Positions 4,506-22,722 of a stretch of 64,000 nt of DNA are shown piece by piece. How positions within the stretch are numbered: position 1 is the first letter of the stretch; each line of letters opens with the position of its first letter. Under the pieces are notes generated by a model, which did not search any database, was not told the origin of the DNA, and saw nothing but the letters and a program-made list of their open reading frames with translations. A program made the translations under genes and the position numbers. The DNA lies in contig CAXXGO010000001.1 of the NCBI GenBank assembly GCA_963666835.2, forward strand, positions 576,001-640,000. The letters are read 5' to 3'. The stretch comes from Phycisphaerae bacterium. GTDB taxonomy: Bacteria > Planctomycetota > Phycisphaerae > UBA1845.

Positions 4506-5624
4506 ATGAAATGGTCTTGGAAGGCGGGTGCGATCTCGGGAGTCGCCATCCATATTCATTGGACGTTCGTGCTTCTGATCGGCTGGATTCTTGCTGCCCA
4601 TCTGACGCGTGGTGAGACGATCGCTGACGCTATGGTGGGGCTCGGCTTCATCTTGGCGATCTTCGGTTGTGTTGTGCTGCATGAACTTGGCCATGCCCTC
4701 GCAGCTAGACGCTATGGAATCGCGACGCGGGATATTACGCTGCTGCCAATCGGCGGTGTCGCCCGGCTTGAGCGGATGCCAGAGAATCCTATCGAGGAGC
4801 TGGTTGTCGCGGTAGCCGGTCCTGCCGTCAACATGGTGATTGCCGCTGCCCTCCTTGTAGGCGTCGCGGTGTCCGTGGGAATCGGCTCGATGGGGCAAGT
4901 CGACCCAGCGGGAGGGCACTTCTTGGTCCAGTTGACGTACGTGAACATCGCACTGGTCGTGTTCAATCTCATTCCGGCGTTTCCCATGGATGGAGGTCGC
5001 GTCTTGCGGGCGCTCCTCGCGACACGCATCGAGTACGTGCGCGCGACGCAGATCGCGGCCACAATAGGGCAAGGTCTGGCCATCGTCTTCGGCGTCTTAG
5101 GCTTCTTCTTCAATCCGTTCTTACTGTTCATTGCGCTCTTTGTATATCTCGGGGCGCAGGCCGAAGCTCATCACACCGAATTGCGTTCGCTCACACGCGG
5201 TGTGCCGGTGCGCGAGGCGATGGTCACGCGGTTTCGGTCGCTGGCAGAGGCTGACAGCCTCTCGAAGGTGGTCGAGGAGTTGCTCTCCGGCGACCAGCAG
5301 GATTTTCCAGTCAAGAGCGGCTCCCGTGTAGTAGGAATCCTCCCCCGGGACGCGTTGATCAAGGCCCTCGCGTCAACCGGGCCAACCGGCAGCGTGGCCG
5401 ACGTGATGCGGCGAGACTTCCAAACGGTGAGCGATACCGAGATGCTCGATCAGGTATTCGAACCGATGCGCGCGGCAGGCCTGAGAGCCGTCCCCGTTAA
5501 TCGACAGGGTGAGCTGGTCGGAATGCTGACGCTTGAGAACCTCGGGGAATGGATGATGGTGAACTGCGCGCTTCGGAAATGTCGGCCACGAAGCGCCATC
5601 GAGAATATCTTCGGCAAGATCTGA
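4506..5624 (+). CDS. Site-2 (M50) zinc metalloprotease with tandem CBS domains
   Basis: HELGH, AGP, FNLIPAFPMDGGR, C-terminal CBS pair. Confidence 0.92.
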   Translation: MKWSWKAGAISGVAIHIHWTFVLLIGWILAAHLTRGETIADAMVGLGFILAIFGCVVLHELGHALAARRYGIATRDITLLPIGGVARLERMPENPIEELVVAVAGPAVNMVIAAALLVGVAVSVGIGSMGQVDPAGGHFLVQLTYVNIALVVFNLIPAFPMDGGRVLRALLATRIEYVRATQIAATIGQGLAIVFGVLGFFFNPFLLFIALFVYLGAQAEAHHTELRSLTRGVPVREAMVTRFRSLAEADSLSKVVEELLSGDQQDFPVKSGSRVVGILPRDALIKALASTGPTGSVADVMRRDFQTVSDTEMLDQVFEPMRAAGLRAVPVNRQGELVGMLTLENLGEWMMVNCALRKCRPRSAIENIFGKI

Positions 5625-11211: not shown

Positions 11212-11592
11212 CTAGACTTTCTTTTTCTCGCGGAAGAGTGGCGACTCGGCCAAGGTGAAGACCACGATCTCTTCTCCGGTGGTGGTGCTGATGTCGTGGT
11301 GCAGGCTCACGACCTTGATGCCGGTGACCTCCTGGACCGTCGATTCCAGGACCGGCCGGGCCGTTTCGATGAGTTGGATCCTCACTTGCTTGAGCAAGTC
11401 CCGGCCCTTCTCGGTTGGTTGCGACTGGACGAGATGCTGCTCGGCCGCGGTCAGAACGCCCTGAAGACGGACCACGAGGAGGTCGCTAATCAAGTGGGAC
11501 TGGATATTCTTCGGCCCGCGGCCCATGAACTCCTGTTCAAAACGCCTGATGCCCTCGGAAACGGCAGCCTCGATTTCTCCCTGTGTTTTCAT
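11212..11592 (-). CDS. DUF2294 / MpsC-like protein
   Basis: MKTQGEIEAA..FEQEFMGRGP, LVVRLQGVLTAAE, TGIKVVSLHHDISTTTGEE; GGAGG RBS before ATG 11592. Confidence 0.85.
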   Translation of the reverse strand: MKTQGEIEAAVSEGIRRFEQEFMGRGPKNIQSHLISDLLVVRLQGVLTAAEQHLVQSQPTEKGRDLLKQVRIQLIETARPVLESTVQEVTGIKVVSLHHDISTTTGEEIVVFTLAESPLFREKKKV

Positions 11593-11784
11593 CGTGACCT
11601 CCAACCTGTCCCACGTACCGGTCAAAGTCTGGCAGAGGCGAAACGTTTACTCGGCCAAAAGCGAAACCGTCTGGCGTCGGAAACCTGCGTAGTAGCAGGG
11701 AATCGCCGACCGGGTAATAATTCTGCTTTGTTTCTCAGAAACTGCAAGCATCGGCGCGCCGATGGAGTATACTATAGTAGTGAG

Positions 11785-11931
11785 CGGGGTTGCCGTACGC
11801 CTAACGGCGGCTCCGGTCGAGGTTTTCGGATGACTTAATAAAGGGCAACCCGGCGCTGCCGGGGCGTCCGTTGCAGAGTAAGCCGACGTGGTTGCGCACC
11901 TTCGGGTGTTTGGCCACGTCGGCTTTTTTTT
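11785..11931 (+). ncRNA. Structured leader with intrinsic terminator, copy 1 (candidate attenuator/riboswitch)
   Basis: P1 hairpin, CGGATGACT, GGCAACCCGGC-GCCGGGG, GTTGCAGAGTAAGCCG, then hairpin plus T8; homologous to copies at 12280 and 14766. Confidence 0.72.
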
Positions 11932-11944
11932 GAGGAGTTCAACC

Positions 11945-12211
11945 ATGGTTATCGGAGTAATCGGCTGGATCGTGTTGGGGCTCATCGCCGGCTACATTGC
12001 CAGCACGCTGGTAAACAAGCGTGGCAAAGGACTCGCCTTTGATATTCTGCTCGGCATGGTCGGCGCGGTGATTGGCGGCTGGATCTTCAACGCGGCCGGG
12101 GCTACCGGCGTGACGGGCTTCAATGCCTGGAGCCTTCTGGTGGCCGTGGTCGGAGCGGTGGTAGTGCTGGTAGTCTGGCACGCCATCCGACGCTCGGCCC
12201 GGCGCGCATGA
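11945..12211 (+). CDS. GlsB/YeaQ/YmgE (transglycosylase-associated) stress membrane protein
   Basis: GWIVLGLIAGYIA, DILLGMVGAVIGG, SLLVAVVGAVVVL; GAGGAG RBS. Confidence 0.88.
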   Translation: MVIGVIGWIVLGLIAGYIASTLVNKRGKGLAFDILLGMVGAVIGGWIFNAAGATGVTGFNAWSLLVAVVGAVVVLVVWHAIRRSARRA

Positions 12212-12279
12212 ACTTCACGATATCGACGTGAAAGGACCGCCTCATGTAGCGGCGTGAGTCCTCTCTCGTCGAGGCAGCG

Positions 12280-12441
12280 GTAGAAGATGTACGGAGCCAA
12301 CGGTGACGTTTCGTTCGGCTCCAATCATGGTTTGAGTCGGATGACTAGATGAAGGGCAACCCGGCCTGGCCGGGGGGCTCGTTGAAGAGTAAGCCGACGT
12401 GGTCGCGCACCTTCGGGTGTCTGGCCGCGTCGGCTTTTTTT
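12280..12441 (+). ncRNA. Structured leader with intrinsic terminator, copy 2
   Basis: GGAGCCAACG/CGTTCGGCTCC hairpin, AGTC-GGAT-GACT, conserved core, terminator plus T7. Confidence 0.75.
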
Positions 12442-12499
12442 GTTCTTGGCGGCCGCGGTGGTGCGGACGAACGATCCTTTCGCAGAAAGGTGCAGAGAC

Positions 12500-12949
12500 A
12501 TGTTAAGAACCCGATGGCATCCTTTGGGCGTGGTGTGGCCGGAGATGAACCGTCTGCCGGCGGAAATGGAGCATAGGTTAGGCCGTTTTGTGATGAACGA
12601 CCCGAGGCGGCTTGCCCACAGCGCCTATCCGCCGCTCAACCTCTGGGAGGACGACAACAACCTGTACGTCGAAGCGGAACTTCCCGAGCTTGAGGTGACC
12701 GACCTGGAGATCTTTGTCAAAGGCGACAACGAGCTGTCGATCAAAGGCGAGCGCAAGCAACCCGAACTGGGAGAGGGCAAGTGGCATCGTCGGGAGCGAG
12801 GCCATGGTGAGTTCTCGCGGGTGGGCGTGTTGCCTCACTACGTGGACAGCGACAAGGTCACGGCCAAATTCAGGCACGGTGTGTTGACCATCACGTTGCC
12901 GAAGCGAAAGGAGGCCCAGGCGCGGCGAATCGAGGCCAAAGCCACCTAA
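12500..12949 (+). CDS. Hsp20/alpha-crystallin small heat shock protein
   Basis: YPPLNLWED, AELP, LSIKGERK, RRER..GEFSR, A.F..GVLTITLPK. Confidence 0.92.
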   Translation: MLRTRWHPLGVVWPEMNRLPAEMEHRLGRFVMNDPRRLAHSAYPPLNLWEDDNNLYVEAELPELEVTDLEIFVKGDNELSIKGERKQPELGEGKWHRRERGHGEFSRVGVLPHYVDSDKVTAKFRHGVLTITLPKRKEAQARRIEAKAT

Positions 12950-13108
12950 TTCCGACACCGGCCGCGTCTCGCCCGCCTTCCACGTCGGCAGGTTGGGTCG
13001 AAAGTGGCCATGTCACGGGAGGTGGGCCTCGACACGAAATCGGCGGTCAATGCGAGCGCGAAACAACGTTTTGGAACGTATTTTCTTGACAAAGTGGAGG
13101 TGCAAACC

Positions 13109-13504
13109 ATGACACCAACCTTAACGACGGAAGAAACCCACAGCGACGTTGCCCCCGTGGAACGTACACTCGGTGGGATTACTTTCAGTCCCCGGTTCGA
13201 CATCTGGGAGAACGACGACGAGACGATTCTGTACGGCGATCTACCCGGTGTCATGCCGAGGGATTTGGATGTTAGCTTCGAAAAGCCCGTGCTGACGATT
13301 CACGGCAAAGTCAGTCCGCGCCACGATGACATCAAGTTCCTGCACGGCGAATACGGAATCGGCGATTTTCACCGTACGTTCACCATCGGCGAAGCGATCG
13401 ACACGGAGAGGATCTCCGCCGAATTCAAGAACGGTGTCCTGACCGTGCATTTGCCGAAGGACGAGAAGGTGAAACCGCGTGAGATCGAGGTCAAATGCCG
13501 CTGA
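13109..13504 (+). CDS. Hsp20/alpha-crystallin small heat shock protein
   Basis: PRFDIWE, DLPGV, EYGIGDFHRTF, AEFKNGVLTVHLPK; GGAGG RBS. Confidence 0.92.
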   Translation: MTPTLTTEETHSDVAPVERTLGGITFSPRFDIWENDDETILYGDLPGVMPRDLDVSFEKPVLTIHGKVSPRHDDIKFLHGEYGIGDFHRTFTIGEAIDTERISAEFKNGVLTVHLPKDEKVKPREIEVKCR

Positions 13505-13753
13505 TGCAAAGACCTCTGAGGAATCGTATCTGGTTCGAAATCGGAGCCGCTGGCGCCGAAGGCAAAGGACGCTGCGCTGAGCCCTCCTCGTGTCACCACA
13601 ATGAAAGGTCTTCCAGTTGCTCCATTCTGATCATCCTGCTGCCTACGGGACGCACGTGATCACCAGCGCAGCGAGATCGTCTGCGCTCAAGAAGGAGGTC
13701 TGGTTATGACTCGATTCGCTTGGATGACTGATTGATCTAAAAGGAGAATCTTC

Positions 13754-14740
13754 ATGGATCCTATCGTGTATGCAGTGATCTTCGCCGTTGTCGTTCCTTT
13801 AGTGGTCTTTTTCTCGGGCATCAGGCTTGTTCGTCCAACACACAAGGGACTCGTCGAGAGGCTCGGCAGGTACCGGCGCTTCGCGAATCCGGGTTTCAAC
13901 TGGATCATCCCTGTCATTGACAGAATGATCAAGGTCAACACGACGGAGCAGATGGTTGATGCCCAGCCGCAAGAGATCATCACCAACGACAATCTCAACG
14001 CCAGGGTGGATGCCCAAGTCTACTTCAAAGTGAAGGACGACGAGGAAAGCGTCAAGAGTTCCCAGTACCACGTCAACAACTACCAGAGTCAGATTGTCAG
14101 CCTGGCTCGGACGACACTCCGCAATATCATCGGCACGTTAACCCTGAAATCCGCCAACAGCGAACGAGACAACATCAACGGTGCGCTTCTGACTACGTTG
14201 AGCAAGGAAACCATGAGCTGGGGAATGGCGATTGTCAGGACCGAACTGAAGGAAATCGACCCTCCCAAGGATGTCCAGGAGACGATGAACAAGGTTGTCA
14301 AAGCGGAGAACGAGAAGGTAGCCGCCTTGGATTTCGCCAACGCGGTCGAGAGACAGGCGGATGGGGAAAAGAGGGCGGAGATCAAGAAGGCCGAAGGCAT
14401 CAGGCAGGCCAAGATTCTTGCGGCGGAGGGCGAGGCTCAGGCAATAAAGCTCGTGAATGAGGCGGCGAACACATACTTCATTGGAAACGCACAGCTTCTG
14501 AGGAAGCTGGAGGCCCTCGAGAGCTCATTGAGCCACAATGCCAAGATCGTCATTCCGTCAGGCTGTGAACTGGTCAATGTCATCGGAGAGATGGCCGGCG
14601 TTTTGCCGCTGGCGGGCGGAAACGGACGACGCCGAAGCGAAGACGGAAAACACGGGTCCGCGGAGTTGGCGCGGGCGGCCCAGCGGGTGGTCAAGCCTTC
14701 TGTTATGAGGGAGGAGGTCCGCTCGCAGCCTGCGCTGTAG
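13754..14740 (+). CDS. SPFH/band 7 (stomatin-like) protein
   Basis: N-terminal TM, VERLGRY, PQEIITNDN, TTLRNIIG, ELKEIDPP. Confidence 0.9.
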   Translation: MDPIVYAVIFAVVVPLVVFFSGIRLVRPTHKGLVERLGRYRRFANPGFNWIIPVIDRMIKVNTTEQMVDAQPQEIITNDNLNARVDAQVYFKVKDDEESVKSSQYHVNNYQSQIVSLARTTLRNIIGTLTLKSANSERDNINGALLTTLSKETMSWGMAIVRTELKEIDPPKDVQETMNKVVKAENEKVAALDFANAVERQADGEKRAEIKKAEGIRQAKILAAEGEAQAIKLVNEAANTYFIGNAQLLRKLEALESSLSHNAKIVIPSGCELVNVIGEMAGVLPLAGGNGRRRSEDGKHGSAELARAAQRVVKPSVMREEVRSQPAL

Positions 14741-14765
14741 ATGCTGGTCGGCATTCATGCGGTCA

Positions 14766-14925
14766 GTAGAGGATGTACGGAGCCACCGGTGACGTTTGAT
14801 TCGGCTCCGATCACAGTTTGAGTCGGATGACTAGACGAATGGCAACCCGGCCGTGCCGGGGGGCTCGTTGAAGAGTAAGCCGGCGTGGTCAGACACCTTA
14901 TGGTGTCCCACCGCGCCGGCTTTTT
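14766..14925 (+). ncRNA. Structured leader with intrinsic terminator, copy 3
   Basis: Close to copy 2 in the 5' part; terminator stem carries compensatory changes. Confidence 0.75.
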
Positions 14926-14973
14926 CTCGCTTGCAGTGGTAGTGGACGGCCGTAGCGGCCAGGGAGGAACGCC

Positions 14974-15393
14974 ATGGACAAACCCAATTCAACAATGGCG
15001 CGCCAGATTGCCCAGGCGGCCAGTGTTTTCGAGCAGCAGAGGACGGGCAACACACCCAAGTCCGTGACCGTGGTGCTGAGCGACACCACGCTGGTGATCA
15101 CGCTGCACGGGGCCTTGTCGGAGGCCGAGAAGGCCCTGGCGAGAAGTCCCGAGGGTGCCGCTCAGATACAAGACTTTCACCGACAGCTGTTCGCCAACGC
15201 CTCCGAGTCGTTGCGACAGGAGATCAAGAGGATTACTGGCGTGGAGGTGCGTGAGGCTACCGCGGAAGTCGAGCCGGCTACCGGCACCGTGGTAGGCGTG
15301 TTCACAAGCGGCACGACGGTACAGGTATACCAGCTCGCGCATGGCGTACCCACGGACACCTGGAACGGGAGTGAACGAGGCGACCAATCATGA
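14974..15393 (+). CDS. DUF2294 / MpsC-like protein (second paralog)
   Basis: FEQQRTGNTPKSVTVVL, LVITLHGALSEAE, FHRQLF, ITGVEV; GGAGG RBS. Confidence 0.8.
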   Translation: MDKPNSTMARQIAQAASVFEQQRTGNTPKSVTVVLSDTTLVITLHGALSEAEKALARSPEGAAQIQDFHRQLFANASESLRQEIKRITGVEVREATAEVEPATGTVVGVFTSGTTVQVYQLAHGVPTDTWNGSERGDQS

Positions 15394-15409
15394 GATCGGG
15401 GGTTCTACC

Positions 15410-15610
15410 ACGTTCCTTTTGTCGAGGAAGAACCGTAAATCCGTGGTTGCCGGATGTTCCAACTGCGTCGGGCGCCTTCTGCGGATCATGGTGCTCGTGT
15501 TTTATGACGGGACCGCAAGTCCGGGCTTTGAAGCCGGTGACGGTTTCCCTGTCCATCGTTGGGAGGTGTGCGAACGGATTCGCGCCGGTGTCGGGCTGGA
15601 AGCAGGTTGA
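15410..15610 (+). pseudogene. csrA: CsrA (carbon storage regulator)-like gene with ACG at the start position
   Basis: (T/M)FLLSRKNRKSVVAG...RIMVL...GFEA....PVHRWEVCERIRA follows the CsrA pattern MLVLSRK..ES..IG...PVHR.EV..RI. Confidence 0.68.
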
Positions 15611-15628: not shown

Positions 15629-16072
15629 ATGGGTAAGACGAACGTCGAACGACGAAACCACGCGTGGTTTGCCCTGGCAGACGCAGAGCATTGTCGGCTC
15701 TTGTGCTGCCGCTTGACTGAACAAGGCACGCCACACGTTGACGAGTATGAAGCGATCGAGAACAAGTTTCCAGAACGTGAACACCTGCGGCCGCAGACCG
15801 GGGACGGCATGACCCATGATGTCGAGGAGAAGGAGCGACGTTTCACGGGGAAGATCGTGGAAAGGTTGCAGGAGAACGCCAAGAAGCACGAGATCGATTG
15901 CCTGGTCATCTTCGCGCCCGCTCGCATGCTCGGCGAACTCCGGAAGGCTTCCTCCCGACTGCTACCGGGACACCTTAAGGAACTCGAGGGCAATCTGATG
16001 CGGCTGCGCGTCGGTCAATTGGCGGAACATCCGATGATCCGCGAACTGGTGCAGGCCACGCATGAGGCATGA
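15629..16072 (+). CDS. Host attachment protein / baeRF-like (release factor-related) protein
   Basis: W..LAD..HCRL, RF...I.ERL, LVIFAPARMLGELRK. Confidence 0.7.
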   Translation: MGKTNVERRNHAWFALADAEHCRLLCCRLTEQGTPHVDEYEAIENKFPEREHLRPQTGDGMTHDVEEKERRFTGKIVERLQENAKKHEIDCLVIFAPARMLGELRKASSRLLPGHLKELEGNLMRLRVGQLAEHPMIRELVQATHEA

Positions 16073-22165: not shown

Positions 22166-22295
22166 GCCGCCGCCCTGTTCGTGGGGGTCGCGGTGTCCGT
22201 GGGAATCGGCTCGATGGCGCAAGTAGACCCAACGGGAGGGTACTTCCTGGTCCAGTTGAGGTACGTGAACATCGCACTGGTCGTGTTCAATCTCA
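22166..22295 (+). repeat. 130-bp diverged copy of an internal segment of the M50 protease gene (4842-4971)
   Basis: Ungapped alignment by eye, about 12 mismatches in 130 bp. Confidence 0.88.
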
Positions 22296-22722
22296 GTACG
22301 GCCGCTGGTACTGCCGTATTAGCCGCCCGCTGGAGCATCCTGGCAAGAGACGAGCAACACAAGCCTATGACGCGGCAATCAGCTATCCGCAGGGGATGCG
22401 GCATCACAAAGCTGCGAGGCTACTGTGGCTGCTGAGAGCTGGACTCTCGCGGAGACTGCGCGAAGAGATTGCCGCGGAGATCATCGCCATGTCGCAGGCA
22501 GTGTCGGGTCCGTGAAATGAGCCCTCGGGCGGACGACATGAGCATTGTGACAAGGACTACAACAAAGTGGGCAGAGGTCTCCGGCGAACGCGCGTTCTTC
22601 GTTGCGATCGTCTGCTGCGTCACTAGAATGACGAGGGAGGAGTTGTTGATGGAAATCTCGTGTTGGATATCGGCACACGTCTAAACCGGGACGTGCGCAC
22701 TAAGATGTAAGCGAGGCGCGCC

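Follow-up and report, generated by a model that had tools for sequence, protein, structure and literature searches.

Among the closest described systems are the ribonucleic antiterminator (RAT) hairpins recognized by BglG, SacY and LicT in Escherichia coli and Bacillus, which are imperfect hairpins that overlap the 5′ arm of a terminator, with termination as the default outcome and read-through when the factor stabilizes the hairpin. The terminator-coupled ON riboswitches for Na+ (the DUF1646 motif), Li+ (nhaA-I) and guanidine (guanidine-I) are likewise simple looped hairpins, and in the HutP, PyrR and TRAP systems of Bacillus a small protein that senses a ligand and lacks a classical RNA-binding domain chooses between a terminator and an antiterminator. 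General stress regulons are defined by a sigma factor and by partner switching, as is the case for sigma-B in Bacillus, RpoS in E. coli and EcfG/PhyR in the Alphaproteobacteria. To our knowledge, no RNA-based control of a general stress regulon has been described for Planctomycetota, whose regulation is poorly understood. Here we analyzed a stretch of 64,000 nt from a Phycisphaerae bacterium (assembly GCA_963666835.2, contig CAXXGO010000001.1, positions 576,001 to 640,000; hereafter the window), which carries three copies of a leader RNA in front of stress genes. This leader represents a new RNA family within a mechanism of known kind. It stands out by the number of its copies, by how well it is conserved, by its association with a general stress regulon and by its coupling to proteins whose function is unknown (the DUF2294 family, MpsC in Pfam), and it probably controls read-through into general-stress genes via two mutually exclusive folds.

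An earlier note on this DNA had described three homologous elements placed in sense orientation before genes for GlsB, Hsp20 and DUF2294, and this was borne out by alignment, by covariance model (CM) scores and by Pfam. The elements align over ~160 nt with a mean column identity of 83%, and a repeat finder groups them into one family. All the motifs that had been listed were found, i.e., GGCTCC, TCGGATGACT, GGCAAC-CCGGC-nnn-GCCGG, AGAGTAAGCCG, a long hairpin and a T-tract. Each copy has a rod-like hairpin (the rod) followed by a predicted terminator and its U-tract, and in copy 1 a first hairpin (P1) was delimited as well:

11774-11932, + strand: leader copy 1, CM match of 164.6 bits; P1 at ~11782-11819, rod (putative antiterminator) at 11826-11886, terminator at 11880-11923, U-tract at 11924-11931.
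12281-12443, + strand: leader copy 2, CM match of 158.6 bits, intercistronic; rod at 12337-12387, terminator at 12381-12434, U-tract at 12435-12441.
14767-14929, + strand: leader copy 3, CM match of 157.3 bits, intercistronic; rod at 14823-14883, terminator at 14877-14920, U-tract at 14921-14927.

When the window's own genome (G000; 6.02 Mb, 7 contigs, 92.3% complete) was searched with copy 2 by BLAST, 9 places were recovered at E <= 3.7e-28, and the next match had E = 0.07. A CM trained on these 9 copies scored them at 157-174 bits (157-165 bits for the three window copies) and everything else at 43 bits or less, and these lower matches corresponded to the opposite strand of the same terminators. 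The copies are clustered, with 8 of the 9 inside 70 kb. No match was obtained with Rfam 15 at gathering thresholds in the whole window, and in E-value mode the 11600-15100 region returned only noise, the top hit being mir-3156 with 24.5 bits against a threshold of 76. Fifteen homologue loci yielded 3 tRNAs and no other family; the Rfam comparison that the note had proposed ended without a strong match to a known family, both in the window and at these loci. In the literature outside subscription journals we found no account of the leader motif or of a link between DUF2294 and RNA.

The proposed CM search recovered homologues in relatives and in other Planctomycetota, and the genes downstream of them were tabulated (see below). 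Among 60 related genomes 21 were CM-positive; they span 7 of the 11 families of the same order and carry up to ~10 copies per genome. An exact pattern drawn from the leader core, which recovers 43-47 of 66 known copies, was then found in at least 125 stretches of a species-representative genome collection. Among the matches listed, 78 of 80 titles were labeled Planctomycetota, with Pirellulales, Planctomycetaceae, Gemmataceae, Isosphaeraceae, Thermoguttaceae, Phycisphaerales, Tepidisphaeraceae and 'Ca. Kuenenia' among the labels, and the other two were a Chitinophagaceae and a delta proteobacterium. At two homologue loci the leaders form tandem head-to-tail pairs (L091:1035-1307 and L128:662-938).

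The structure was analyzed on an alignment of 66 unselected matches, while mutual information and the U-tract and promoter counts were obtained from 98 sequences; the pattern-selected set was unusable for covariation of the rod closing helix, because the pattern itself had fixed those bases. The inner helix of the rod, CCCGGC:GCCGGG, showed compensatory changes at 6 of its 6 pairs, and the GGGC:GCYC helix below it was 95% paired, with one pair found as GU in 31, GC in 21 and AU in 11 sequences. The apical loop of the rod has 3 nt in most copies. The predicted terminator has a 21-bp stem, which was 94% paired and carried compensatory changes at 14 of the 21 pairs, and at least 6 T were found among the last 10 nt in 97 of 98 copies, so that the sequence has the G+C-rich stem-loop and the following U-tract of an intrinsic (Rho-independent) terminator. 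A general promoter and terminator scan returned 5 terminator-like sites against 4.1 expected and is uninformative for such long stems. The change from GCCGAC/GTCGGC to GCCGGC/GCCGGC, which had been read as compensatory within the terminator, is a true compensatory pair (columns 124-157, AU in 7 and GC in 2 copies). It had also been claimed that P1 still pairs where its sequence differs, and among the homologues P1 indeed covaries strongly without conservation of its sequence. In the all-against-all mutual information the top pairs fell in P1, the terminator, the inner helix and the GGGC:GCYC helix. A CAAC:GUUG helix that had been drawn next to the inner helix fared worse: 83% of its cells were paired, 23 of 66 sequences were unpaired at one position, and it is both weaker than the GGGC:GCYC helix and incompatible with it. 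The GUC-GGAU-GAC hairpin was present in a minority of the 66 aligned copies, as judged by eye on the alignment.

The note had further proposed that CGGCT in the P1 3′ arm pairs with AGCCG in the terminator 5′ arm as an antiterminator. CGGCT was present in all three window copies, but only in 5 of the 9 copies of the genome and in 19 of the 66 homologues, and P1 itself is variable or missing in some homologues; CGGCU:AGCCG was therefore discarded as a conserved antiterminator. A different pairing involves the two near-invariant strands of the leader, UCGGAUGACU (5′) and AGUAAGCCGA (3′). These strands are mutually complementary, pairing as UCGG:CCGA and ACU:AGU on either side of A.G, U-A and G.A, and this lower helix of the rod was 94.7% paired in the 66 sequences. 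The UCGGAUGACU:AGUAAGCCGA pairing closes the GGGC:GCYC and CCCGGC:GCCGGG helices into one rod with conserved internal loops. Since the AAGCCGA sequence is common to the 3′ strand of the rod and to the base of the terminator, the two folds are mutually exclusive, and UCGGAUGACU:AGUAAGCCGA is thus the conserved alternative helix, using the terminator 5′ arm, that is expected of an attenuator. There is little covariation in the helix that closes the rod, as its two strands are nearly constant. Its middle pair was U-A in 63, C-G in 6 and A-U in 2 cases, a 3′ G being matched by a 5′ C in 6 of 8 cases, and single compensatory events changed ACU/AGU to AUU/AAU and to GCU/AGC.

The competition between both folds was then modeled. 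When the sequences were folded without the terminator 3′ arm, the minimum free energy structure held all 4 UCGG:CCGA pairs in 45 of 66 sequences, and at full length the terminator base formed in 56 of 66; a full-length fold constrained to keep the rod was a median of 8.8 kcal/mol less stable. Since full-length folding favors the terminator, the unaided outcome should be termination, and read-through should need a factor that stabilizes the rod. In the mechanism that we propose, the rod hairpin would be transcribed first, with UCGGAUGACU pairing to AGUAAGCCGA and closing two covarying helices. Its 3′ strand would double as the base of the 21-bp intrinsic terminator, so that the rod would sequester the terminator base. 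Left unaided, the terminator would win, which would give default termination, and a factor holding the rod closed would lead to read-through, i.e., the leader would behave as an ON switch.

The leader is tied to the genes that follow it. An open reading frame (ORF) with a Pfam family, on the same strand and starting within 400 nt, was found at 57 of the 66 matches, while 0 of the 123 antisense ORFs in the same stretches had a Pfam family. The random orientation relative to genes that a repetitive extragenic palindrome (REP) or a miniature inverted-repeat transposable element (MITE) would show, which the note had named as a pattern to look for, was not seen, and neither was a lack of gene association; sense-only annotated ORFs thereby exclude a REP/MITE-like pattern. 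A repeat that moves or recombines, and whose terminator hairpin is incidental, would explain the multiple, clustered copies (8 of 9 within 70 kb) and the junction between leader copies at C1:525 kb (see below). It is contradicted by the strictly sense orientation, by a covarying structure conserved across metagenome-assembled genomes (MAGs) labeled as several orders, by the association with one functional gene set and by flanks that have neither terminal inverted repeats nor target duplications, and we give it almost no credence. Together with the Rfam result and the covariation, the sense placement before genes supports the note's view of the leader as a cis-acting transcription attenuator without a catalogued family.

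The genes behind the 66 matches belong most often to MpsC/DUF2294 (26 cases), and for 9 no family was assigned. HSP20, Cpn60 (GroEL), Transgly_assoc, PRC-barrel, CsbD, DUF892, DUF883 and Host_attach/baeRF12 were also found, in addition to OmpA-collagen, KaiC, a fatty-acid desaturase, a SpoIIE-type phosphatase and others. In a second, independent set of 83 matches from named MAGs a family was assigned to 47, namely MpsC 18, YflT 4, CsbD 3, AMP-binding 3 and BON 2, as well as single cases of ferritin, KaiC, Transgly_assoc, a sigma-70 factor, NifU, SufBD and ArsD, among others. This leader-linked gene set is the repertoire of the general stress regulons of other phyla. The genes around the window copies are as follows, two types of DUF2294 (A and B) being distinguished by their MpsC score:

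11212-11625, - strand: DUF2294/MpsC type B, Pfam MpsC 123.9 bits (11212-11622); divergent from leader 1, candidate trans-acting factor.
11945-12211, + strand: GlsB/YeaQ-type small membrane stress protein, Pfam Transgly_assoc, E = 2.4e-13.
12500-12949, + strand: Hsp20 small heat-shock protein, Pfam HSP20, E = 4.3e-19.
13109-13504, + strand: second Hsp20, Pfam HSP20, E = 9.5e-18 on ORF 13004-13501; the ATG at 13109 was read from the sequence.
13754-14740, + strand: SPFH/Band 7 membrane protein, Pfam Band_7, E = 3.3e-35.
14974-15393, + strand: DUF2294/MpsC type A, Pfam MpsC 78.5 bits (14974-15390); behind leader 3, type A being the most frequent gene in that position.
15629-16072, + strand: Host_attach/baeRF12-family gene, Pfam Host_attach, E = 5.2e-12; further along the same unit.

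Both flanking DUF2294 proteins are above the curated Pfam cut-off for MpsC (23 bits), and the Host_attach/baeRF12 family was also found behind leaders at loci L055 and L056. We had suspected a csrA-like ORF at 15341-15610; it was discarded, since it has no Pfam match and the sole csrA of G000 lies elsewhere. The possibility that CsrA itself controls the leader, or is titrated by it, has to be weighed here. CsrA would bind the GGA in UCGGAUGACU, which in copies 2 and 3 sits within the loop of a hairpin, and would shift the fold, so that DUF2294-csrA operons would autoregulate. Of 98 sequences, 94 have GGA there, and a CsrA ORF comes after type-A DUF2294 in 4 of the 66 and 4 of the 83 matches. 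However, G000 has a single csrA, with no leader closer than ~1 Mb, conservation is limited to one GGA, the hairpin that would present it is found in a minority of the 66 copies, and the invariant GG is equally explained by its pairing to the CC of CCGA. Control by CsrA is thus very improbable, and, with the csrA of G000 distant and the 15341-15610 ORF lacking a Pfam match, CsrA is at most an occasional member of the regulon.

Upstream of leader 1 the following arrangement was read from the sequence:

11744-11773, + strand: predicted promoter-like region of leader 1, with a -35-like GCAAGC at 11744-11749, the palindrome ATCGGCGCGCCGAT at 11750-11763 and a -10 TATACT at 11768-11773.

ATCGGCGCGCCGAT is a perfect 14-nt palindrome between the -35-like hexamer and the -10 box, which is also present at L007 and partly at L004, L005, L026 and L060, and a DNA-binding regulator may use it as its operator. 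A TATACT/TATAAT box was found ~7 nt before P1 in 6 of the 9 copies of G000, and a hexamer-spacer-TAnnnT arrangement preceded 45 of 98 homologues, where shuffled sequences would lead one to expect 5.7. In addition, a promoter block GAATYCACTTGCYTTCC...TAnnAT is conserved upstream of the leaders at L027, L048, L046, L024, L051, L066 and L053, which hints at a dedicated sigma factor, or at an UP-like element, besides the RNA switch. No such promoter-like box precedes leader copies 2 and 3, and copy 3 starts 27 nt past the SPFH stop codon. Since both copies are intercistronic and lack the box, the window appears to hold one unit, promoter-leader 1-glsB-leader 2-hsp20-hsp20-SPFH-leader 3-DUF2294-..., with three switches in series. 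A single promoter would then drive the unit and the three leaders would act as successive checkpoints, which suggests a graded, checkpoint-like control.

These promoter-like boxes, together with the strong predicted terminators, could also be taken to delimit small trans-acting RNAs, with UCGGAUGACU as a seed and with expression of the downstream genes by incidental read-through, and the multiple copies and high sequence conservation of the element would agree with this. Against such RNAs stand the intercistronic copies without promoter (copies 2 and 3 and others) and the fact that the leader always points into a gene. Furthermore, only 13 nt separate the leader 1 U-tract from the GlsB start codon, a gap too short for a promoter of its own, so that glsB can be transcribed by read-through only. 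Purely trans-acting RNAs are therefore improbable, and the element may have a dual role as leader and trans-acting RNA. In one metatranscriptome run, contigs connect the terminator to the gene, at 11858-12156 for copy 1 and at 12380-12604 for copy 2. They are a weak hint of read-through, as they possibly derive from relatives or from DNA; because the RNA data are assembled contigs, their ends and the uncovered stretches are uninformative on termination.

Two apparent rearrangements of this unit were observed. A metatranscriptome contig (run X18) joins 12240 to 13751 and omits 1510 nt; it seems to come from a relative without leader 2 and both hsp20 genes, which would point to modular gain and loss of leader-gene cassettes. 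A segmental duplicate of the stress operon lies ~63 kb upstream (window 11774-12443 versus G000:C1:525148-525306, L007:1467-1625), in which the promoter-bearing type-1 leader is fused to the hsp20 flank of leader 2, while glsB and one leader are gone. Its junction looks like a recombination between leader copies.

The factor that would hold the rod closed was then considered. G000 has 6 MpsC genes, 3 high-scoring (type B) and 3 lower-scoring (type A). All three type-B genes, one of which is 11212-11625(-), are divergent and ~180 nt upstream of a leader, and all three type-A genes are directly behind a leader. When G000 and the 60 relatives were considered together, 25 of 31 type-B genes were located 89-576 nt upstream of a leader, 21 of these divergently, and 27 of 33 low-scoring (type-A) genes immediately followed a leader in the same orientation. 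Both leader and MpsC were present in 20 of the 60 relatives, the leader only in 1 (G041), MpsC only in 4 and neither in 35, so that MpsC was found in 20 of 21 leader-positive and in 4 of 39 leader-negative relatives, a co-occurrence that is descriptive, as relatives are not independent. The type-B proteins share 47-84% identity (mostly 60-84%) across aligned sequences from MAGs labeled as several orders, with invariant residues H108, D110, S112 and E117 and several near-invariant Arg/Lys. They carry an invariant SLHHDIST.TGEE block that is absent from type A and that looks like a metal- or ligand-binding site. The structure predicted for type B (pLDDT 87.8, pTM 0.79) gave weak fold matches to YslB, H-NOX, Bet3/TPC6, V4R and PoxR sensor domains (Foldseek E >= 0.01; VIA Z <= 6.6). 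The V4R/H-NOX/Bet3-like resemblance is a weak lead that fits a small-ligand sensor and says nothing on RNA binding. A search of the PDB by sequence with both DUF2294 types gave nothing below E = 0.2, a protein atlas search with type B gave no usable match, and the predicted complex of type B with type A had a score of 0.02.

The divergently encoded, highly conserved type-B DUF2294 is the leading candidate for the effector, a choice that we make tentatively, and the leader-controlled type A might provide feedback. The main rival, which we consider possible but somewhat doubtful, is a true riboswitch, in which the rod would be the aptamer for a stress-linked small molecule or ion (e.g., an alarmone or a cation) that stabilizes it, DUF2294 being merely the commonest target. 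A riboswitch would account for the conserved unpaired nucleotides inside covarying helices coupled directly to a terminator, and for the tandem copies at L091 and L128, as found in some riboswitches. The regulated genes, however, are a broad stress set rather than the pathway or the transporter of one compound, a near-obligate co-occurrence with a fixed divergent protein gene is atypical for riboswitches, and no Rfam riboswitch was matched. An effector of another kind is about as doubtful as the small molecule.

Several observations weigh against the leader being a two-fold switch operated by DUF2294, and the first two of them also favor a riboswitch. In G041, which is 99% complete, the leader is present without MpsC. 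Five type-B loci (G011, G038, G044, G056 and one of G050) have no adjacent leader by unfiltered CM search; the prediction that a leader had been overlooked next to these genes failed at 5 of 5 loci, where the best unfiltered score was 23.9 bits and covered the terminator only. The type-B model resembles no known RNA-binding fold. The closing helix of the rod is almost invariant and its covariation comes from few sequences, so that conservation alone could equally fit the recognition of a single-stranded sequence. The RNA evidence consists of contigs of one run that could include DNA. Finally, in an even sample of the phylum at least 5 of 150 genomes had a match (a lower bound, with 19 candidates scored per genome); given these few matches and the wide range of the pattern scan, the leader is widespread yet patchy.

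If DUF2294 proteins do hold the rod closed, they would make up a novel class of antiterminators that bind RNA and sense a ligand; the upstream paralogue would contribute the invariant HHD...EE site, and the paralogue under leader control would serve for feedback. Either an orphan riboswitch that responds to a stress-related ligand would thus be at hand, or the widespread DUF2294/MpsC family would gain its first function, as an RNA-directed regulator. The leader also defines a stress regulon by sequence alone, so that the many 'hypothetical' genes found behind leaders become interpretable. A broader proposal, which we regard as speculative and rather unlikely, is that many Planctomycetota run their general stress response by attenuation and not by partner switching of sigma factors, with one leader RNA gating dozens of stress genes and DUF2294 (MpsC-like) operating it.

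Two other repeats were observed in the window. A 137-nt stretch (4842-4978), inside a long + strand ORF (4506-5624), recurs at 22166-22302 with 90% identity; as the second copy overlaps only shorter ORFs, it is probably a gene-fragment remnant. Between 60053 and 62184 a ~41-nt unit, GACTGCAAC...CCGGAYGANTGYGA, is repeated at least 12 times, mostly at a 57-nt spacing; these are presumably coding repeats of a large secreted protein.

When compared with the known systems, the leader would operate in the manner of RAT-type protein-dependent antitermination or of a hairpin-type ON riboswitch, without belonging to a known family of either kind. As in the RAT hairpins of BglG, SacY and LicT, the rod has conserved internal loops and overlaps the 5′ arm of the terminator, and default termination, factor-dependent read-through and one regulator for several copies per genome are proposed. 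Unlike RAT (~29 nt), the rod has ~61 nt and is unrelated in sequence, the regulon is that of general stress and not of sugar uptake, and the candidate protein is a single-domain DUF2294. Moreover, the RNA-binding domain CAT_RBD (PF03123) gave 0 matches in the 92.3% complete G000, the control being detected in 4 of 14 genomes, and the leader does not qualify as a RAT system. ANTAR (PF03861) also gave 0 matches, with its control undetected in every genome too, and the ANTAR-leader architecture, which consists of two tandem hexaloop hairpins with the second overlapping the terminator, differs from a single rod with a mostly 3-nt apical loop. With the Na+, Li+ and guanidine-I riboswitches the leader shares a hairpin with internal loops that abuts a terminator, a proposed ON logic, a location in the 5′ leader and an occasional tandem arrangement, and it differs from them in the lack of an Rfam match, in its broad stress gene set and in its tight link to a dedicated protein family. 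In the proposed role of a small, ligand-sensing protein that has no classical RNA-binding domain, the leader recalls HutP, PyrR and TRAP attenuation; it has, however, no UAG or GAG triplet repeats, DUF2294 is unrelated to these proteins by sequence and fold search, and no HutP homologue was found in G000. The leader-linked set overlaps with the sigma-B, RpoS and EcfG regulons in CsbD, YflT, BON/OsmY-like, Dps/ferritin and GlsB/YeaQ proteins, and also in DUF892 (YciF-like), DUF883 (ElaB-like), PRC-barrel, KaiC and Hsp20. Unlike in those regulons, the element that its genes share is a leader RNA with a terminator, although many copies also have a conserved promoter.

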